Positions 4,397-48,434 of a stretch of DNA of 64,000 nucleotides are shown here, one piece after another. Each line of letters opens with the position of its first letter. Position 1 is the first letter of the stretch. The DNA is from a virus: the IMG/VR virus record IMGVR_UViG_3300045988_122545, positions 31,662-95,661 of that record. The stretch is one strand, 5' to 3'. The notes below the pieces were generated by a model that was not told the DNA's origin, ran no database searches, and was given only the letters and a program-made list of their open reading frames with translations. The position numbers were made by a program, and so were the translations under genes.

Positions 4397-4400
4397 ATTA

Positions 4401-4859
4401 TTAACCGTTAAATTCTACTAATTTTGTTTTATTATCCGTAGTATAAGCATCAACGTGAACCCAAGTTACATCTCGTTCCAATCTTATCGGATATTCAAAT
4501 TTATCAATATTAGAACGTATAAGATTTTTCACTTCTTCTGCAGACATATCATTAACAGTAAAGTCAATAGCTTTTCCTAATGAGTGCGAGCTTACATATA
4601 CCTTATTAGAATTAGTTTTATCTTTGCATAACTAACATATATTACATCTTAATCCTCTTTGTGTTAGATTATTATCATAAGAATTAATAATCATTGGTTT
4701 TTTGATTATTTGAGTACGTAATGTATAAATAATGCTCAGTAGTTCAGTTGAAATGAACTACCAAGCATTATCTCCAAAAGTATTAACACAATGAGGACAA
4801 ACTAATTCTTTCAACTAAAAATACTTTTTAACTTCTTTAATTAATTCGTCTCTTTCCAT
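4401..4859 (-). CDS. Zn-dependent cell-wall peptidase, M15 (VanY / L-Ala-D-Glu peptidase-like) family; 3 in-frame TAG
   Basis: ATG 4857-4859 to TAA 4401-4403 with TAG at 4815, 4758 and 4632. Motifs SSHSLGKAIDF (H..G.A.D) and WVHVD. No ORF-track entry because it is split into pieces shorter than 60 aa. Confidence 0.7.
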
Positions 4860-24145: not shown

Positions 24146-24215
24146 TAATAGAATATGTTGATTAATTTTTATTTTTTATGACAAAAACTTTTTTCAAAAA
24201 ATTTTATATTTTTTG

Positions 24216-24303
24216 TCGCGGTGGTAGGAGTCAAACCCACCCGGTCGGCTTCAGAAGCCACACTGTTTTAGAGACAGTCCATGCAATCGTACATCACACC
24301 GCG
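24216..24303 (-). tRNA. Amber suppressor tRNA, anticodon CUA, 88 nt with long (about 21 nt) variable arm
   Basis: Acceptor CGCGGTG/CACCGCG. Anticodon arm ACTGT-CTCTAAA-ACAGT (U33, CTA at 34-36 = plus-strand 24269..24271, A37). Variable arm GGCTT-CTG-AAGCC. T arm GTGGG-TTTGACT-CCTAC. Discriminator A. No encoded CCA. Confidence 0.8.
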
Positions 24304-31541: not shown

Positions 31542-31709
31542 AATTATAAAATTTTGAGGGTTAACAATATTGTTAATAACTACTTTTTATAATACCCCCA
31601 GAAGTAGTTGAAACTGTGCTAGCCTACGATCTAGACCATCATTAGCTGTATTAATCAGTACATATCGTATCTTAAAAGATCTCAGTTTGTATTTTATCTG
31701 ATTAGTGAC

Positions 31710-34370: not shown

Positions 34371-34456
34371 GCTCGAATGGCGAAATAGGTAGACGCGTCA
34401 GACTTAAAATCTGATGAGCAGTAATGTTCGTGCGGGTTCAACTCCCGCTTCGAGTA
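34371..34456 (+). tRNA. tRNA-Leu (anticodon UAA), type II
   Basis: Acceptor GCTCGAA/TTCGAGT. D arm GCG-AAATAGGTAGA-CGC. Anticodon arm TCAGA-CTTAAAA-TCTGA. Long variable arm. T arm GCGGG-TTCAACT-CCCGC. Discriminator A. Confidence 0.85.
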
Positions 34457-34551
34457 CAATTCTAAATCCATACTTATAGCAAATAACACCATCTGTGAAG
34501 ACCGTGTTATTCATTCAAAAATATCTACACTGTGTGAATCAGTGTCAACTT

Positions 34552-34681
34552 TGTGGGGCTTATATCTAAAGAGCGCACTTAAATAGAGCTATTATCAATA
34601 GAAGGAGCGTTAGTTGCAAATAACAAACCGGAAATTCTTTTTAGTTAAGTTTAAGCTTTAGTATTAGTGCAGAGTAATATC
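34552..34681 (+). ncRNA. Candidate structured RNA module, copy 1 (TGTGGGG ... TAGTGCAGAGTAATATC)
   Basis: Shares 5' and 3' boxes with copies at 34826 and 36693. The closing stem 34562-71/34656-64 covaries with copy 2. Confidence 0.4.
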
Positions 34682-34825
34682 AAAGACAGAGTATATACCT
34701 GTAGTTATACTCAAGTAAACTACTAACTACAGAACTGGTCATCCTGGTACAGGGAAGGCAGACCAGAGAGAGGTTTCGGAAGTAGTACCTCTCTCGCTCT
34801 TTATGGTGAGAATCCATAACAAGCA

Positions 34826-34917
34826 TGTGGGGCTTATGTCTAATCAGATCAGAGGGCATTATTAATGTCGTTTAATGGTAGGTGGAGGAGATTAGCATTA
34901 GTGCAGACGTTAAAATC
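34826..34917 (+). ncRNA. Candidate structured RNA module, copy 2
   Basis: TGTGGGGCTT... stem 34836-45/34890-98 ...TAGTGCAGACGTTAAAATC. Confidence 0.4.
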
Positions 34918-35118
34918 ATGCAAAAAGATAGTGTTATGTTCAGTCTTATTCTACAATCTTTTAGTAAATCGGTACTATCTTTTTATTTTACCCAAGCGTG
35001 GGTCGTCCTTATTCATTGACCCTTGAATAGATGAAAATTCTGAACATCTGTAAAGTATAATGGCTTGTGAAAGTCGTTATACTTTTTTAATTAGAATAAT
35101 CAAAGCGTTGATTAGACG

Positions 35119-36658: not shown

Positions 36659-36692
36659 ATAAAATAAAAACGTCATCAGAAAATGACAAACA

Positions 36693-36796
36693 TGTGGGGT
36701 GTAAGTAATATTTTACATTTTATAAAGAAAAAGTGGATTGTAAAGCTTTATAAAATGCGTATCCATAAATATTATGATCATGCGGACGTTAAAATC
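36693..36796 (+). ncRNA. Candidate structured RNA module, copy 3
   Basis: TGTGGGGTGT... stem 36706-12/36768-74 ...ATGCGGACGTTAAAATC. Confidence 0.4.
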
Positions 36797-37003
36797 ATGT
36801 ACTCCAATAAGATTGGTTTGACAGCCTTTCTGCTTATGAGTTAAAACTATAGTGAGAGTCATAAAACCTAATCTAAAAAAGCAATAAAAATAAAGGTGTA
36901 GAAGTCTAACTAAAACAGTATGGTGTAACAAATAAACAAATCCCTGCCATACCAGGGTCGTCGTCAACCAATTTATTAACCAAAACTTTAAAATTATGTA
37001 AGA

Positions 37004-39034: not shown

Positions 39035-39789
39035 TCTACGAACTATCCTAGAACAATGATTAATTCTACGTTCTAAAAGTAAGTGATTCTTATCATATGA
39101 GTGCGGTTTAGCGACCTAGAAAATATTCCGGAATCACTTATTTAAGATGAATTGACATCAACTATCCGTACTTTTATGTCAGTATAGTGGATAAAATTTA
39201 TGCCAGACCAATGCTTTAAAGGTCATGTTAGAGCATCTCGTATCTTTGTATCAATGATGTAAGGCGTTATAGAATGATTGCCTTTCTAACTAGTCTCGTA
39301 GACGAAAAACCTTTAAACAATCAATGTAATCAATGAATGCTTTATGCTTATAGTTCAATTGAGTCCCAATAATGGTGAGCACTTGCTATACATTGATAGT
39401 TATCAAGGCACTTCTTTTATAATTCTAAAGTAATGAAAGTGCTTTTATGCCAAATAATTAAAGTTTTAATAATAAAAGTGAACCGTAAATCGAATATTAT
39501 TTAAATATATCGTAAGACCGTTGTATCCAAAAAATATTATTATTATTTTAGTTATTGTAATATTATTATAAAACTTTATATAAAATTAAAGTTAGTTTAT
39601 ATACCGTAGGAATACGAATTGATAATATTATACATTACTTTAGAATTTCTATTTATTTAAATAGTTATGCCATGATTCGTTCTGGTAGATATAGATTAAT
39701 AAGGGATGTTGCTGAACGTAGTACCAACTAAACTTATCATAACTATTTTTAAGTATAGTATCTTTGATCGGATACTATACTACTATATG

Positions 39790-39844
39790 ACTGTTAGGTC
39801 ATTATACAGTTGTTAAGACGAGGGTTCGACTCCCTCTAGCTCCA
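39790..39844 (+). other. Orphan tRNA 3' module (anticodon-like arm + T arm + 3' acceptor strand) with no matching 5' acceptor strand
   Basis: ACTGT-(11-nt loop)-ACAGT, then GAGGG-TTCGACT-CCCTC-TAGCTCC-A. No GGAGCTA-type partner within about 800 nt upstream. Preceded by a 10-bp hairpin at 39753..39780. Confidence 0.35.
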
Positions 39845-40033
39845 CATTTTGATAACGTTATGCGGTAATTTACCTAAAAAGTAGCAAGCAAAAAACTAAT
39901 GGACCTGTATAAAAACGTTGCCACAATGCTAGTTTTTACAACTTATTTGGTTTTATCTTCAACGTGGATTCTGTATAACAGGTGCTAATACTCAAACTAT
40001 AGAGTAATACTTTGTGAGAGTATTAGCAGTAAT

Positions 40034-40159
40034 GGGATATTAGTTTAACGGTAGAACAAAGCGTTTCGAAAGAATCGATGATTATGAATAACATTAAATT
40101 CAGCAAGAACGAAGTTATTATAATCCGCTTGAGCATGGGTTCGATTCCCATATATTCCA
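40034..40159 (+). tRNA. tRNA-Arg(UCG)-like gene carrying a ~55-nt insertion in the anticodon arm
   Basis: Acceptor GGGATAT/ATATTCC. D arm GTTT-AACGGTA-GAAC. Anticodon stem AAGCG (40059-63) pairs with CGCTT (40126-30). TTTCGAA follows the 5' strand. 40071..40125 is extra and folds as a 12-13-bp helix. T arm ATGGG-TTCGATT-CCCAT. Confidence 0.5.
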
Positions 40160-40457
40160 CGTCCATAATACAATACAGTTGTTATGGTTTTGTAGTGATT
40201 TTAAAATGTTTCACGTTTGCACCATGTAAAAATAAACGTGACTATACTATCCGAACCGAAGGGGACAAAAAATCAGAGTAGTGGTGGAGATGGGCTACTC
40301 AATTGGGGCTATACGGTTTTGATTAGCAATAAGATGTAATGAATAGGTCATATAAATTGTCTAAATGGCAATAAATTTGTAACAGACTATACTCGTATCG
40401 CAGCGTGATATGGGTAAGTGAGGTGTTTCACTACCAAGAAACAGAAAAGTGACTTTG

Positions 40458-40525
40458 AGTAGAATCGACTAATGGATAAGTCGTCTCCAAAGGAGAAAAT
40501 GCGGGTTCGAATCCCGCTACTACTC
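40458..40525 (+). ncRNA. tRNA-like gene (68 nt) with a 13-nt anticodon arm
   Basis: Acceptor AGTAGAA/TACTACT (1 mismatch). D arm GACT-AATGGATA-AGTC with GG. T arm GCGGG-TTCGAAT-CCCGC. The anticodon region is TCTCC-AAA-GGAGA only. Confidence 0.4.
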
Positions 40526-40550
40526 CAAAATTAACTTAGTTATCATAATT

Positions 40551-43327: not shown

Positions 43328-44704
43328 ATGAGTAAGAAAACAAAAAGCGCAGCTACATTAGCTGACAAGAAAAAGAACAATAAAACAGTTAAAGAAACAA
43401 CAGCAACAACAGTAGAAAATCCAACTCCAGCTCCAGCTCAGGCTCCAGAACCAAAACCTGAAGAAAAACCAGCTAACAAACTTGCAGAAAAGCAGACTAA
43501 GAAGAAACCTGAAAAGGAATCTGAAAAGGAAGTAGAAACTATTATTCCAGAAGTAATTGCTCCAAAACCTTCTGAAAAGAAGAATTCAGCTACACAGCTT
43601 GCAAAAGCATTTAACGTAGCAGCAATGAATGCACTTGCAAACGGTGATCGTATCAGTGCTGATCAAGGTATCACATTGATGAATTTGATTCATCAGCGTT
43701 ATCTTAATAATCCTGATACACCAGCAGATGCTAAAGAATTTATGTCCAAACAGTTTAATGCAATGGCTCTTCGCAACATCATTCTCTGGAATGCTCAGAC
43801 AAAGGAAGAATTAGGCAATGCCGGTTTGAAAGTAAACGAAGAAATGTTCAATGCCATCAACGAAGGACTCGCTTTATACTATGGTATTGAAGCAAAAGCA
43901 CTTCCGTCACCAGATGGTGATGGTCAGCTTCAGTTACAGTTTGAAGCTCCGCAAGAAGTAGAAAAACAAGCAAAAGAAAGTAAAGAAGCTGAAAAGCAGG
44001 AAATCTCTATAGAATACAAAGAAGGAATGTCTGAAGAAGAAATCCAGAATGCATTGGCAAAGATTCTTAATCAATCCGGTGCAGGAATGGATAATAATTT
44101 AAAGAATGCAATTGCTTTTGCAAAGAAAGCATATTCTTTAACAACAGATGATCCGTCTGAAGTAGTTGCTGCGATTATTCAGAAATTGCCAAAAGGACAA
44201 CTTCTGTTGGAAGGATTTGGTCGTATGATTTACGGCTCATATACCACAAATGATGGTCCGTTTACAGCACATGCAATTCTTAAAAGTCGCTTGAAATCGC
44301 TAAATTATTCGGACAATCAGCTCGCGAAACTCGTGCAGTTATTCTTTGTACTTGGTGCAAGAGTAAACTACGAGAAAGTAAAATCTGAAACAGCATCGTT
44401 CGCAGATTATGTAGAACCTTGGAACTTGTTGACCAAAGCACTCAATGATCAGATCATCATTGATATCATTGGTACACAGAAGAATCCTACAAGTTTTGTA
44501 GAGGTTCCGAAGATTACCGGATTGTCTACTGGTAAATTCAACTGTCCAAAGATTTTGCATCAATTGAAAGATGCATATGGTACAAACCTCAATGATTCAC
44601 AACTGAAAAAACAGATGCAAATCATTCTATCTTTGTATCAGAAAGAAGAGATGAATCCGATGGCAGATTATATCGAAAAGTCAATCTATGCCACAAGTAA
44701 ATAA
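43328..44704 (+). CDS. Hypothetical abundant early protein (458 aa) with K/E/P-rich disordered N-terminus
   Basis: Intact ORF with GC-richer, biased codon usage. Confidence 0.6.
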   Translation: MSKKTKSAATLADKKKNNKTVKETTATTVENPTPAPAQAPEPKPEEKPANKLAEKQTKKKPEKESEKEVETIIPEVIAPKPSEKKNSATQLAKAFNVAAMNALANGDRISADQGITLMNLIHQRYLNNPDTPADAKEFMSKQFNAMALRNIILWNAQTKEELGNAGLKVNEEMFNAINEGLALYYGIEAKALPSPDGDGQLQLQFEAPQEVEKQAKESKEAEKQEISIEYKEGMSEEEIQNALAKILNQSGAGMDNNLKNAIAFAKKAYSLTTDDPSEVVAAIIQKLPKGQLLLEGFGRMIYGSYTTNDGPFTAHAILKSRLKSLNYSDNQLAKLVQLFFVLGARVNYEKVKSETASFADYVEPWNLLTKALNDQIIIDIIGTQKNPTSFVEVPKITGLSTGKFNCPKILHQLKDAYGTNLNDSQLKKQMQIILSLYQKEEMNPMADYIEKSIYATSK

Positions 44705-44729: not shown

Positions 44730-45104
44730 ATGAAACGTATTAACGGAATCATCACGATTCTGACAATTGCAATCAGCGGCTATATTGGGTATTCTACAAA
44801 TTTTGTAAATACTGCAACAGCAACCGCAGTTCCGGTAGAAAGTAAGATTATCTTACCAGAACTACCGAAAACAGGCTTTAATTTGAATATTGATATGAAT
44901 ACTGGAAAAGTAGTTGCAAATGCTTCCCAAAATATTCGTGTAGATATTCAGAAAAAAGACTCTATCGTTACTCGATGGAAAACTAAAATCGTAGAAAAAC
45001 CAATTTATATTCGAGTAAGAGAACTTCCTCGGCTTAAAAGAGAAAGAACAATTGTAAGTTCTTTTGTAAACACCGAAGAACTTTATAACTTACATTGTAA
45101 GTAA
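44730..45104 (+). CDS. Signal-anchored protein (124 aa)
   Basis: AGGAGG lies 10 nt upstream of the ATG. N-terminal hydrophobic helix. Confidence 0.55.
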   Translation: MKRINGIITILTIAISGYIGYSTNFVNTATATAVPVESKIILPELPKTGFNLNIDMNTGKVVANASQNIRVDIQKKDSIVTRWKTKIVEKPIYIRVRELPRLKRERTIVSSFVNTEELYNLHCK

Positions 45105-47052
45105 GCAAAATAAAATTCGTGCTAGCGTATCTAGTAAACTCGCCAAGATATCTAAATCTTAATGAGTAGTGATTAAATGTAGGAGATTTATCACAAACAG
45201 TACAGGATATTGAGTAAATATAGTCGGTTTATCTGTCTAATAAATCGCATCGAGAAGTAATAACATCTCAATCTAATGGCTACCACCATTGGTTATATTG
45301 AAAAATATGATAACTCTATATGTCGAATTTACTGTTTAAGACTGAAAAGTTATAGAGAAAATGGGAGAGCGTTTCACAACCCATAAGTGAGAACCGAACT
45401 GGTGACTAAAAGACGCAATTAGAGAATCAGCAGATTCAATAATTAAACGATAGAAAAAATCCTGAAATGGCTAGGTATCGTAAACCTAACATCCGCGTAT
45501 CAATCAAGGTATGAATCAAGAAGGGATGTAAACACGAGTTGCAAACTCGAAAAAGGTTCGAGTATAAAGAACTATTAAGACTTCCAACCTCTTAATACTT
45601 TTATAGTAGGATTGATTAACATCCTAGGTGGGCTCCAAACCTTCCTTGCGGTTTGTAAACGCTAAAATAATACCAAACATAGTGTTCTATACGTCAACCT
45701 CTGGAAGTTGGCTCAGAAGAGTTTAAAAACGTATATATGAAGGTGTTTGTTTTATTTATATAGCATTATTGATTGCAGTGAGTTAGTAAATTACGTATTC
45801 ATGGAATTGTAGATAAAACGTTCGTTGTAAGAATGAAATATTAGCGTAATGTCATATTAACCAGTATATGACTAATCTGAACAAGTAAGTTGCAAGACTT
45901 AATCCTCCGTTGAAGGGAGATGTGTGAATTCAAGTATAAATAAAACGAAAGTGGTCGATGTCATTATATCACTATAATTTCTAACGTGCTTTGCACTAGA
46001 TTATGACAATGACTTTGCGGATGAAGAGCGCAATAACTCTATTTCGGTATATAGATGATTTTGGTATAAATCTATATTGTAAATAAGTTAACCTGGACTA
46101 GAACTGGATGACAAATTCTAGACAAGGTGGGACAGCAATCCTTATCGCTGTATCTGAAAACAATCGATACACATTCCAGTGTATACGAAAGGGCTTAGAT
46201 TAGTACCGGAGAACATTGTTCCTTATTTAGGTAGCATAAGTAATAGATGTTATTACTTTTGAAAGTAAATCCTAGATAACAGGTATAATTAATTATATGT
46301 TTAATCTTTTAAAAAATGTGGAAGTCCAATGGAATGTATTTAAGAAGTAAGCATTTAGCTAAAACTAATACTCTCCACCCACGACTGTATAAAATAATTT
46401 GCAGTAAAACGAAAGTCATGAGCAGCAACTCATGTTAGTAGGTTCGCTGATTCCTTCATTAAGGATGATAGGTGGAAATCCTAGGATTATATGCAGGATA
46501 AGAACAAAATCGTAAGTACACGTAGGATACACAAAGGACCCTTAAAGCAGAGTGGGTGTTTTGAAACATAAACAGCTCTTGCATAGTTTTTGGTAACGTT
46601 TTTCAACAAAAACGACCGGTGAAACTACGACATAGTCTAAAGCTGGTTAACAGCTATACCAACAACAAGCACGTCGAAATTTGATTCTGTTAGGCTTGTA
46701 AAATAATCAGAGTCCCGTACTCCTTACGTTAACAGGAAAATCGCTTTAATACATATTTCATTATGGGTATATATCTCCTACCGTTGGAGTCCCGTTATAT
46801 TATTTTAATAGTATAACTAATTTAATATGTTTAAAGTAAAACATATATTACCAGATAATATCATCAAAAATAACAGATTTATATATCAGTTTTTATATTG
46901 GTGAGAACTCAAAATGTTATTGAATTAACTAATCCTTTTTAAGTTTTTTAAAACGATAAGATATTAGACGCTTATGGATTACGAGAAAAAGAGTTCTCAA
47001 GAACTTTAGAGTTTATTAAAATCATTTTACTAATTTAAAAATCAAGAAAACT
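45105..47052 (+). ncRNA. 1.95-kb ORF-free, hairpin-dense tract: candidate large structured non-coding RNA(s); strand unknown
   Basis: Stops in all six frames (no ORF of 60 aa or more). Visibly GC-richer than flanking genes. Many 5-9-bp hairpins, several with GGG-containing loops. Confidence 0.35.
46037..46094 (+). repeat. Conserved ~60-nt non-coding element, copy 2 (partner at 35119..35179)
   Basis: See copy 1. This copy contains the hairpin TATAGAT-(13 nt)-ATCTATA. Confidence 0.5.
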
Positions 47053-47616
47053 ATGGATAAAAATAATTTTGGTTTGGCTAAATTTACCGAACAAGAAACA
47101 CGGAATTACGCACCTATGATGCGGGCATATAATGGAGTAATTGGTATGAAGATTTGTTGCATCAAATCTGACAATATCGATTTGAAATATAAAGAAAAGA
47201 AGAATGCAAATACTATTGCATCTTTGTGTACTAACATTCCAGTCAAAAAGTATTTCGTAGAATCATTTACTGTATTGAGTATTGCTCTCGATAAAGCAGC
47301 AAATGGTAGTCCGGTAATCAACTTCAATGGTCAATCCGAACTTACATTTCCACTGTCTCCAGATACAACAGACAGTCTTTTGAACGCAACTCGGGCTTCT
47401 ATTAATGATGCAATTACCGAGTTCGAAGCAACTGGTAAAGTTAAATTCTTTACTGATATCGCTCTGTGTACTCAGGTAGCACAGGAGTTGAACGACATGA
47501 ACGCCGATGCAATTGATAAGTTCGTAGAAAGTCTGATGAATCAGGCAAGCTCATTACGGACTCTTAACAAGACCATGGGCTCAGAATTAGATGAATATAC
47601 TAAGTCTCTTGAATAA
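47053..47616 (+). CDS. Hypothetical protein (187 aa), probably highly expressed
   Basis: Intact ORF with GC-richer codon usage. Confidence 0.6.
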   Translation: MDKNNFGLAKFTEQETRNYAPMMRAYNGVIGMKICCIKSDNIDLKYKEKKNANTIASLCTNIPVKKYFVESFTVLSIALDKAANGSPVINFNGQSELTFPLSPDTTDSLLNATRASINDAITEFEATGKVKFFTDIALCTQVAQELNDMNADAIDKFVESLMNQASSLRTLNKTMGSELDEYTKSLE

Positions 47617-48134: not shown

Positions 48135-48263
48135 AATATTGGTTGGGTAATTTTAAGTTATTCTAAATAAAAAGAACAAACACATCGGTCATTGGTTGGG
48201 TAGACCGATTTAACCTTTTAATTAGCACGTTGGTTGGGTTTGTGCAATGGTGCTTGGTTGGGT
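47769..48263 (+). repeat. Array of six same-strand GGTTGGGT octamers (47769, 47873, 48141, 48194, 48232, 48256)
   Basis: Four copies are the extended TTGGTTGGGT in the 300-nt intergenic gap. The last three sit in loops of short hairpins (ATCGGTC/GACCGAT, GCAC/GTGC, GTGC/GCAC). Confidence 0.6.
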
Positions 48264-48434
48264 ATGCACTATCTGCCTCTGATACGTATGCTGTAATTGG
48301 CATATAATAAATGAAATCCTATAGAAGAAGATTAGGATGCGTGTTTCGATACCGACAGAGGCACACAGGTAAATGATTTCATACATGGTTTTAAAGTAAA
48401 TTCATTTTATTAACATTTAAAATCAAAAGAAACA

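Follow-up and report, generated by a model that had tools for sequence, protein, structure and literature searches.

The DNA analysed here, referred to as the window, is a stretch of 64,000 nucleotides (nt) from the viral record IMGVR_UViG_3300045988_122545 (positions 31,662 to 95,661), and all coordinates below count from its first letter. It groups by blastn with the crAss-like phages of the family Suoliviridae (cr6_1, cr115_1, cr114_1). Its early block contains a 1.95-kb tract (45105..47052) located between an open reading frame (ORF) of 124 amino acids (aa; 44730-45104, +) and one of 187 aa (47053-47616, +). The order at the locus is a gene for an extracytoplasmic function (ECF)-type sigma factor, here 2.2 kb upstream of the tract, a small gene, a gene for a protein of about 460 aa, another small gene, the tract and two small genes. 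Comparison with related phages suggests that the interval ~45275-46817 (+) probably encodes a large, multi-domain structured non-coding RNA (ncRNA) of about 1.55 kb here and about 1.6-1.9 kb in relatives, which would be a hallmark of the Suoliviridae. An earlier note, made from the letters of this DNA alone, had proposed that the tract encodes a large structured RNA comparable to the phage-borne GOLLD and ROOL. It is the comparative evidence that upholds this proposal, the cues of GC content, hairpin density and GGG loops being mostly invalid.

A non-coding tract conserved throughout the Suoliviridae

The tract is non-coding. Its longest ORF with a start codon comprises 41 aa, and no stop-free run in any of the six frames exceeds 51 codons. 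TAG, TGA and TAA all occur in every frame, 6-33 times each; reassignment of TAG alone opens at most 78 codons and of TGA alone at most 64. The earlier note had already described the absence of an ORF and a saturation with stops that no recoding scheme rescues, and both descriptions hold: neither single- nor double-stop reassignment produces a credible ORF. The three codon positions of the tract have nearly equal identity (0.727/0.730/0.740), whereas the flanking genes show the classic pattern (0.59/0.67/0.51 and 0.61/0.70/0.42). Pairwise indels are multiples of three in 30 of 292 cases in the tract versus 33 of 43 in the genes, and none of the small ORFs of the window stays free of stops and frameshifts in all of the five closest relatives. 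A protein-coding gene, standard or recoded, was rejected on the lack of an open frame, the lack of codon periodicity and the 90% of indels that shift the frame.

The tract is also better conserved than its surroundings. Over 45300-46800 the nine lineages nearest to the window have a mean pairwise identity of 0.60-0.80, compared with 0.33-0.66 in the two flanking genes. It falls sharply from 0.79 to 0.49 at ~46800 and declines more gradually 5' of ~45300; between these limits conservation is continuous, with no low-identity spacers between units. When nucleotide identity of the tract to the window is set against amino-acid identity of the upstream protein, lineage by lineage, the values are 92% against 80% (L193), 84% against 57% (L195), 76% against 43% (L197), 75% against 45% (L196) and 70% against 45% (L198). 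These comparisons imply stronger purifying selection on the tract than on the neighbouring proteins. The tract is not a pseudogene, because it is conserved above real genes; the degraded gene remnant considered in the earlier note is likewise excluded by the flat codon-position conservation, the 90% non-triplet indels and the lack of any conserved small ORF.

The same layout recurs across the family. In cr6_1 and cr115_1 the gene order is unchanged (with a ~460-570-aa gene), and the unannotated gaps of 2.08-2.2 kb are collinear homologs of the window tract, in which variable stretches alternate with about ten short invariant blocks. Further loci were retrieved with three conserved blocks used as DNA patterns, the D4 motif retrieving 85. 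About 110 loci on viral contigs were found in this way, all on contigs of 50-148 kb. Every sufficiently flanked locus has an interval of 1.7-2.25 kb without an ATG-initiated ORF of at least 80 aa, and the ORF-free tract is present in 53 of 53 complete viral-contig loci. A metagenome scan added 74 loci, with the gap in all 44 complete ones and a human-gut origin where contig names tell, and no additional lineages. Homologs of the 458-aa protein encoded upstream led to six more lineages, which all have gene-free gaps (1.89-1.98 kb, 6/6, independent gene calls), while retrieval anchored on the 187-aa protein returned identical contigs only. Anchoring on the sigma factor revealed the same layout in Loutivirinae (cr113_1, cr56_1), Boorivirinae (cr10_1) and Oafivirinae (cr130_1 from macaque, cr7_1, Bohxovirus); RefSeq genomes of Bearivirinae and Uncouvirinae share it, so that all five Suoliviridae subfamilies are covered. 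Total tract length is 1.9-2.2 kb across lineages, and the conserved blocks are collinear in order and number.

At the sequence level, an nhmmer profile matched D1 of cr10_1 (E = 8e-26) as well as D1 and D3/D4 of cr113_1 and cr56_1 (E = 1e-16 to 1e-22 overall, 1e-16 to 1e-18 for D1). The iterated profile did not reach Oafivirinae, for which homology is based on collinear core motifs and hairpins in a forced direct alignment, and it found no paralogous pieces of the tract elsewhere in the window. One genome each of 185,579 prokaryotic species gave two matches only, on short, low-coverage or binned contigs that look like contaminants; apart from these two, the tract RNA was found only on phage contigs of crAss size. 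The tract is missing from the cultured Bacteroides phage BS162P1, which has only a remotely similar sigma factor in common with these phages. The tract RNA is restricted to the Suoliviridae, the delta-group crAss-like phages, and is a vertically inherited hallmark of this family, for which PMC12697116 and a 2026 preprint suggest Prevotella/Segatella as hosts. The earlier note had regarded relatives without the tract or its conservation as decisive against an RNA; the opposite was found, with a syntenic, ORF-free tract in all relatives that is rich in compensatory changes.

Coding sequences (CDSs) annotated in the tract of some records are artefacts, either short calls or minus-strand translations with internal stops. 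Those called 'hypothetical protein' on the RNA locus are NC_055897 gp096, NC_055900 gp066, NC_055875 gp22, NC_055896 gp20, NC_055895 gp52 and PV686213 ECCNAKDA_00150. The minus-strand CDSs have translations unlike proteins, with internal stops under the standard code in cr7_1 (two) and cr113_1 (four). All these hypothetical CDSs are probable mis-annotations.

Covariation and the domain map

Covariation was measured on alignments made with MAFFT only and not fitted to any structure, which is conservative and under-counts variable hairpins. Thirteen lineages were aligned over domains D1, D2, D3 and D4 (alignments A4, A6, A7 and A5, respectively), and 21 sequences from five subfamilies over the core of D1 (A10). 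Double-sided compensatory change occurs at 20 of the 26 predicted pairs of D1, 32 of 39 in D2, 10 of 12 in D3 and 15 of 31 in D4. As controls, the 3' partners were slid by 1-3 columns and the columns were shuffled 500 times. Paired cells amount to 93.6% in D1, 89.9% in D2 and 92.6% in D4, compared with 28-51%, 34-55% and 34-48% for slid partners. Compensatory cells number 57, 106 and 37 in the same domains, versus 17.4, 35.6 (+/- 4.8) and 10.8 in the shuffles. No shuffle (0/500) reached the observed number of pairs changed on both sides in D1, D2 or D4, a measure that phylogeny alone rarely exceeds according to the documentation of the tool. The fraction paired, the compensatory cells and the covariation score likewise gave 0/500 in D1, D2, D4 and the 21-sequence D1 core, and D4 did so on all five measures. 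In the D1 core 93.8% of cells are paired versus 37-55% when slid, with 51 compensatory cells versus 16.6 +/- 3.6. The first 420 nt of the adjacent gene, taken from the same 13 genomes through the identical pipeline as a negative control, yielded 0 predicted pairs.

An 18-sequence alignment folded with RNAalifold gave 237 consensus pairs, 143 of them compensatory. Over 45275-46817 it contains 28 supported helices, counting those of 3 bp or more with two or more covarying pairs and no fewer than 85% canonical cells. In out-of-sample Loutivirinae and Boorivirinae the supported helices are 72-75% canonical, versus 31-50% when slid, and appear in new compensatory versions. The pattern indicates that selection keeps base-pairing in at least 28 helices, with spans of ~45 to ~400 nt, plus at least one pseudoknot.

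This pattern also bears on the idea that the tract is a cis-acting DNA element, such as an origin, a packaging site or a promoter array, or else a decayed or recoded protein gene. The tract is AT-rich, non-coding and positionally conserved, as such an element could be, and the phage appears to recode TAG in its late genes (suppressor tRNA at 24215-24303). However, duplex DNA would not be expected to show dozens of pairing-preserving double substitutions between sites as far as 400 nt from each other, and the cumulative GC skew turns at ~32 kb, not here. A gene is opposed by the stop-saturated frames, the missing codon periodicity and the frameshifting indels described above, and a decayed one by conservation above that of real genes, the opposite of a pseudogene. 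An explanation of this type is hardly credible.

The predicted helices fall into five domains, D1 to D5, which are mapped in Table 1 together with the flanking segments and the ribozymes of the early block.

Table 1. Map of the predicted RNA, its flanks and nearby ribozymes in the window (abbreviated end positions share the leading digits of their start).
Feature	Position	Strand	Remarks
Three Hatchet self-cleaving ribozymes	34523-34685, 34797-34921, 36672-36800	+	69-94 bits
5' flank/leader	45105..45274	+	From the stop codon of the 124-aa gene to the first family-wide helix; identity 0.42-0.57, below core
Domain D1	45275..45563	+	Covariation, nhmmer homology
D1 hairpin	45275-79/45286-90	+	Invariant loop GCUACCAC, covarying stem
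D1 helix	45314-20/45351-57	+	Supported helix
D1 helix (GGG/CCC)	45361-65/45380-84	+	Supported helix
D1 long-range helix GCGU/ACGC	45369-72/45413-16	+	Variants GUGU/ACAC, GGGU/ACCC
D1 helices	45386-88/45405-07; 45489-94/45524-29	+	D1 helix list
D1 hairpin ACUCGAA/UUCGAGU	45545-51/45557-63	+	5/7 pairs covary
Domain D2	45600..45949	+	Covariation, 18-sequence fold
D2 helix	45608-12/45621-25	+	18-sequence fold
D2 hairpin	45626-45647	+	Conserved loop CUCCAAA (45633-39), covarying inner stem
Long-range closing helix AUACC/GGUAU	45670-74/46063-67	+	Brackets ~400 nt: D2 and first part of D3
D2 helices	45676-79/45744-47; 45688-94/45729-35	+	Flank invariant UAGUGUUC (45680-87) and UAUGAAGG
D2 13-bp long-range helix	45749-61/45934-46	+	9 covarying pairs
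D2 variable subdomain of ~170 nt inside the 13-bp helix	45790-95/45845-50; 45851-56/45867-72	+	18-sequence fold
Domain D3	45950..46200	+	Covariation, helix list
D3 helix	45950-55/45968-73	+	Helix list
D3 helices	45980-82/45998-46000; 45986-89/45993-96 (GUGCUUUGCAC)	+	Helix list
D3 helix	46025-28/46037-40	+	Helix list
D3 H-type pseudoknot, stem A AAGG/CCUU	46124-27/46140-43	+	AAAG/CUUU in Uncouvirinae
D3 H-type pseudoknot, stem B ACAGC/GCUGU	46132-36/46147-51	+	Covaries
D3 hairpin	46167-72/46179-84	+	Helix list
Domain D4	46300..46620	+	Covariation; new variants in unseen subfamilies
D4 helices	46318-21/46379-82; 46331-33/46374-76	+	Around conserved GGAAGUYCAAUGG and CCACCCNCGACUGU
D4 long-range helix	46385-91/46490-96	+	Supported helix
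D4 hairpin	46417-22/46429-34	+	Helix list
D4 junction hairpin	46452-56/46461-65	+	Helix list
D4 hairpin	46469-72/46480-83	+	Conserved loop UGGAAAU (46473-79)
D4 near-invariant AUAAGAACAAAGUCGUAAGUACACG	46499-46523 region	+	Conservation
D4 hairpin	46549-53/46575-79 plus 46557-63/46567-74	+	GAAACAU loop
Domain D5, 3' end of conserved core	46640..46817	+	Helix list
D5 helix	46666-72/46693-98	+	Helix list
D5 hairpin CUCC-UACCGUU-GGAG	46775-78/46786-89	+	AUCC-UACCGUU-GGAU in Oafivirinae
D5 terminal hairpin GUUAUA/UAUAAC	46794-99/46812-17	+	Also GCUGCA/UGCAGC, GUUACA/UGUAAC
AT-rich spacer before the 187-aa gene	46818..47052	+	GC 24-29%, identity 0.44-0.67, one conserved block at ~46900-46950

In D1, the GCGU/ACGC helix encloses the invariant GAGAACC (45389-95) and a CC/GG hairpin (45394-95/45401-02), and its central pair occurs in three Watson-Crick states in the 21-sequence set (C-G 15, U-A 4, G-C 1). 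The closing helix over D2 and D3 exists as AUACC/GGUAU, AUACU/AGUAU, AUGUC/GACAU and AUAUU/AAUAU, and its pair 45673/46064 is CG in seven and UA in six of the 13 sequences. In the 18-sequence alignment 89% of its cells are canonical and 2 of 5 pairs covary; the helix is absent from the minimum-free-energy structure of that alignment. Stem B of the pseudoknot varies most widely (ACAAC/GUUGU, ACGCG/UGCGU, ACACG/UGUGU, ACCGU/ACGGU, AUACUC/GAGUAU, ACCUU/AAGGU). For D4, subfamilies not seen in the prediction supply the compensatory versions UGUUUUG/CAAAACA to CCAUACU/AGAAUGG and UAGG/CCUA to GAGG/CCUC. Four hairpins combine a covarying stem with an invariant loop, namely GCUACCAC, CUCCAAA, UGGAAAU and GAAACAU.

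Several hairpins had been pointed out in the earlier note. Of two overlapping ones given as examples, ACUCGAA/UUCGAGU covaries in five of seven pairs and lies one base away from where it had been placed (true position 45545-45551/45557-45563), and CGAGUU/AACUCG found support in none of its six pairs. Recurrent stem-loops at 45625, 46125 and 46468 do exist, but their description as GGG loops is wrong: at 45626-45647 the GGG belongs to the covarying inner stem under the CUCCAAA loop, the motif at 46124-46151 is the H-type pseudoknot, and the conserved loop at 46469-46483 is UGGAAAU.

The near-invariant loops CUCCAAA (45633-45639) and UGGAAAU (46473-46479) contain the perfectly complementary UCCA and UGGA. 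They are a candidate kissing contact, either intramolecular between D2 and D4 or intermolecular; the loops are invariant, so covariation is uninformative on this point.

Strand, extent and gene neighbourhood

The RNA is assigned to the plus strand with moderate confidence, because the flanking genes are all on that strand, G-U pairs are in excess and some G-U pairs are nearly invariant there. A functional RNA made from the minus strand, antisense to the gene block, would be compatible with the strand symmetry of Watson-Crick covariation. Strand-specific predictions give uninformative mirror-image G-U:A-C counts (240:81 versus 88:226), energies with G-U pairs disabled are -165 on plus and -170 on minus, and gene callers sometimes place minus-strand ORFs in the tract. 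These ORF calls are junk, however, and all genes between 32.5 and 61 kb lie on the plus strand. With G-U pairs disabled during prediction, the unbiased counts favour plus, with 78 G-U versus 56 A-C cells in pairs and 145 versus 107 at stacked neighbours. The Alifold energy is -225 on plus versus -213 on minus, and G-U pairs that are invariant or nearly so on plus (e.g. U-G in 13 of 13) would become A-C mismatches. A minus-strand RNA is improbable.

The 5' end of the RNA would lie somewhere between 45105 and 45275. This flank contains the conserved block ACAGUACAG.AUA (~45196-45208) in 10 of 10 representatives, and no sigma-70-like promoter or terminator stands out in it. At the other end, the conserved core closes with the terminal hairpin of D5. 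In the spacer interval, 100-250 nt 3' of the RNA core, most relatives have an additional conserved module of ~55 nt (GAAGAACRGCUGACUCAUCUGUCUAAUGAGUAAAGUCCUACGGGGAAUGCYGAG; ~4400-4470 in L001, ~5750-5810 in L002). Its stems covary, CGGC/GCCG with CAGU/GCUG and ACUCAU/AUGAGU with ACUUAU/AUAAGU, and it has no Rfam match. It may be a small ribozyme or a processing signal. The pattern AGTAAAGTCCTACGGGGAATGC occurs in 85 relatives and is absent from the window, where 46860-46930 is degenerate; judging from this comparison, the window phage has lost the module. In lineage L060 (reverse strand), the GAAACAU hairpin of D4 is found at ~4400-4480, aligned to 46457-46470, about 100 nt upstream and inside the junction hairpin, and its usual place is empty. 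By alignment this appears to be a natural domain transposition within the RNA.

The early block is rich in other RNA genes. An Rfam scan finds tRNAs at 34371, 40034, 40458 and 49585. The tRNA-Leu(taa) (34371-34457) is followed directly on its 3' side by two of the three Hatchets, an arrangement suggesting that ribozymes help to process a transcript with a tRNA in it. A 2026 preprint states that Hatchet occurs largely in Crassvirales only. The Rfam tRNA matches at 40034-40159 and 40458-40525 (+), within the 39035-40550 gap, are not called by ARAGORN; the first, 126 nt long, may be an intron-containing tRNA or an unusual tRNA-like element. That about 5.8 kb (about 20%) of the early block is non-coding, as had been calculated in the earlier note, holds arithmetically, with the other gaps partly taken up by tRNAs and the three Hatchets. 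One of them, a gene-free gap of ~300 nt between the genes of a 168-aa and a 166-aa protein (48135-48434), occurs at the same place in every relative inspected (200-350 nt) and may be another small conserved RNA or a regulatory region.

The neighbourhood in relatives also holds an annotated transfer-messenger RNA (tmRNA) and a ribosomal-protein-like gene; the 'tmRNA' of 360-450 nt is annotated at a syntenic position upstream of the sigma-factor gene in cr114_1, cr125_1, cr10_1, cr130_1 and cr7_1. In the minus-strand late-gene block of the window, ARAGORN calls an amber suppressor tRNA with anticodon CTA ('Pyl'; 24215-24303, -), and the ORFs look fragmented under the standard code. Both are consistent with TAG recoding of late genes, which has been described for delta-group crAss-like phages (PMC7886860).

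Among the neighbouring proteins, compared with PHROGs and Pfam, only the sigma factor has a match. The 458-aa protein (43328-44704, +) always precedes the tract and combines a Lys-rich, predicted-disordered N-terminal part of ~90 residues with an all-alpha body. All its homologs come from crAss-like phages, and neither Pfam nor PHROG nor PDB provides a relative. Its AlphaFold model (mean predicted local distance difference test, pLDDT, 65.8) has no fold relative in PDB and only uncharacterised crAss proteins in BFVD. The protein is a candidate RNA-binding partner of the tract RNA.

Several points weigh against one large RNA on the plus strand. Single-sequence thermodynamics makes the tract no better than coding DNA: folding-energy z-scores in 300-nt windows, computed from the window sequence alone, average -1.1 in the tract versus -2.1 in flanking coding DNA, so the hairpins stressed in the earlier note are not denser than background. 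Nor is the tract richer in GC than the coding DNA around it, as had also been thought (32.4%, versus 32-37% in the adjacent ORFs, 29.7% in the early block and 30.2% in the window). Two of the five measures in the 21-sequence D1 test are less extreme (17/500 and 33/500), the two strands differ only weakly (about 1.4 G-U cells per A-C cell), and the neighbouring proteins give no functional clue from PHROGs, Pfam or AlphaFold models compared with PDB and BFVD. The ends, abundance and strand of the transcript are all deduced from genome sequences. The longest supported span is ~400 nt and none unites the whole 1.55 kb, so that several adjacent RNAs are possible, and the loss of the 3' module from the window and the displaced hairpin of L060 betray some modular independence.

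The last two points would fit a tandem cluster of independent structured RNAs of ~100-400 nt (small RNAs, ribozymes or protein-binding decoys), separately transcribed or cut from a precursor. In such a cluster the grouping of helices into D1-D5, with no supported pair beyond ~400 nt, the dispensable 3' module, the relocated GAAACAU hairpin and the three Hatchets and tRNAs of the early block would all find a place. Against it, the conserved blocks are collinear and equal in number in every lineage, the length is steady at 1.9-2.2 kb, and conservation is continuous over 45300-46800. Conserved internal promoter- or terminator-like sites were not found, no self-cleaving ribozyme model matches inside the tract, and the nesting of long-range helices (45670/46067 around 45749/45946) is what one large fold typically shows. 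A cluster is unlikely, though it is the main alternative.

Possible role and comparison with known RNA families

The tract RNA belongs to no Rfam family. All 4227 families of Rfam 15, including GOLLD, ROOL, OLE, HEARO, raiA, group I/II introns, RNase P, tmRNA, ribosomal RNAs (rRNAs) and small self-cleavers, were searched with cmscan at the gathering threshold on the window and seven relatives' loci, and permissively (E <= 10) on the tracts of the window, cr6_1 and cr115_1, which are three divergent homologs. Only chance-level matches were obtained in the tract at either threshold (SpR08, small nucleolar RNA, microRNA and long ncRNA models, 15-25 bits). That the method works on this genome is shown by the Hatchets and tRNAs that these scans detect in other parts of the window. 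The GOLLD and ROOL covariance models gave no match at the gathering threshold in the window and the seven loci or at E <= 10 in the three tracts. The checks proposed in the earlier note, which had not been able to match the tract to GOLLD or ROOL by eye, have in this way been carried out for GOLLD, ROOL and group I/II introns, with no match. Hatchet, hammerhead, twister, pistol and hepatitis delta virus (HDV)-like models find nothing inside the tract at E <= 10. Neither do Rfam models for RNase P RNA, tmRNA and rRNA fragments or, for tmRNA, ARAGORN. Identities seen by eye between AAGUCGUAA, GAGCGCAA and AAAGUCC and RNase P, tmRNA or rRNA were dismissed as non-collinear and, by rough estimate, at chance level. 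Likenesses to 16S rRNA, RNase P CR-I, k-turn/C-D box and hammerhead cores are also short, non-collinear and unsupported by covariance models. No description of the tract RNA was found in the literature; Yutin et al. 2021 merely mention regions with short ORFs of mixed polarity.

An ORF-less group I/II intron, or another mobile ribozyme that splits one gene into the flanking small ORFs, would have the size and the helix richness seen here, and delta-group crAss-like phages do have group I introns in core genes (PMC7886860). Yet no model for Intron_gpI, group II introns or other ribozymes matches any of the three divergent homologs at E <= 10, and neither a homing endonuclease nor a reverse transcriptase is present; a group II intron in particular was discarded for want of an Rfam match and of an ORF in the tract. 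The upstream ORF ends with a stop codon, and downstream a conserved ATGGA(A/T)AA start follows ~235 nt of unconserved AT-rich spacer. The flanking ORFs each possess conserved stop and start codons, and for this reason the tract is no intron. Its presence at one site in 100% of relatives implies vertical inheritance, not mobility. An intron is very improbable.

A single structured RNA remains the favoured explanation. It would be transcribed rightward (+) with the early/middle block, which contains the ECF-type sigma factor, the tRNAs and the Hatchets, and then trimmed to a stable, compactly folded molecule that acts as RNA. By analogy, it may be an architectural RNA or ribonucleoprotein (RNP) particle of the GOLLD/ROOL type, possibly self-associating via its CUCCAAA and UGGAAAU loops. 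It could act while the host is being taken over, plausibly as part of the programme around translation and tRNAs that the gene block serves. An architectural role of this kind is favoured because of the analogy to GOLLD and ROOL and because of the neighbourhood of tRNAs, Hatchets and sigma factor. A bolder proposal, tentative and somewhat short of an even bet, is that the tract RNA is the founding member of a class of giant ornate RNAs that function as one folded unit of ~1.5-2 kb. Such a unit could be a nano-assembly, of RNA alone or as RNP, or else a large ribozyme or scaffold by which the translation or tRNA metabolism of the host is reprogrammed during infection.

Large intricately folded RNAs are rare and have historically turned out to be ribozymes or core machines, such as rRNA, RNase P and group I/II introns, and the orphan classes GOLLD, ROOL and OLE have recently been shown to be unprecedented RNA-only assemblies. 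CrAss-like phages are among the most abundant viruses of the human gut. If the tract RNA is indeed one unit, it would be the largest structured non-ribosomal RNA known in any phage, and this across a whole family of human-gut viruses. An RNA fixed in this entire crAss-like family, with tighter conservation than neighbouring proteins, would account for a 'non-coding' share of ~2% of each Suoliviridae genome, expose the spurious CDSs that RefSeq carries over the tract and supply a highly conserved nucleotide marker for the family. A new class about twice the size of the orphan RNAs would be of prime interest to RNA structural biology and to the search for ribozymes, and it would open the testable question of RNA-based host takeover in the human gut virome.

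The closest parallels, and the only comparable RNAs carried by phages, are GOLLD and ROOL, which cryo-electron microscopy shows as homo-oligomeric or multimeric RNA-only assemblies (PMC12286853). ROOL (Rumen-Originating, Ornate, Large) RNA comes from gut and rumen, is associated with phages and prophages, often lies beside tRNAs and forms cage-like multimers (PMC12286853; PMC5737381). The tract shares with both that it is a conserved ncRNA of more than 500 nt with extensive covariation, carried by phages in a tRNA neighbourhood. Like GOLLD, a large structured ncRNA of phages and prophages, often near tRNA genes, with many covarying helices and pseudoknots, it is multi-domain and lies in a tRNA-rich block, and its conserved apical loops could mediate RNA-RNA contacts. 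It differs in the missing Rfam-model match, in host range (Suoliviridae of Bacteroidota) and in being about twice as large, GOLLD measuring about 800 nt. With ROOL it has the gut setting, the phage association, the proximity of tRNAs and a large ornate fold in common; however, it has no Rfam match to ROOL, is about three times longer than the ~580 nt of that RNA, and occupies one fixed syntenic site in a single phage family instead of being scattered.

OLE, HEARO and raiA are likewise long conserved intergenic regions with covariation that were found by comparative genomics alone. They are cellular or transposon-associated, with characteristic protein partners or contexts; none matches the tract, which is essentially absent from the 185,579 species genomes. 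The Hatchet/tRNA arrays of crAss-like phages share the early block with the tract, as an RNA-gene and RNA-processing neighbourhood, but Hatchet is a self-cleaver of ~130 nt and no Hatchet-like model matches in the tract. In size the tract RNA exceeds even the largest orphan RNA classes of bacteria and phages about twofold. It is new at the level of the RNA family, with no homolog in Rfam or the searched literature, and large ornate phage RNAs such as those above already provide a precedent.

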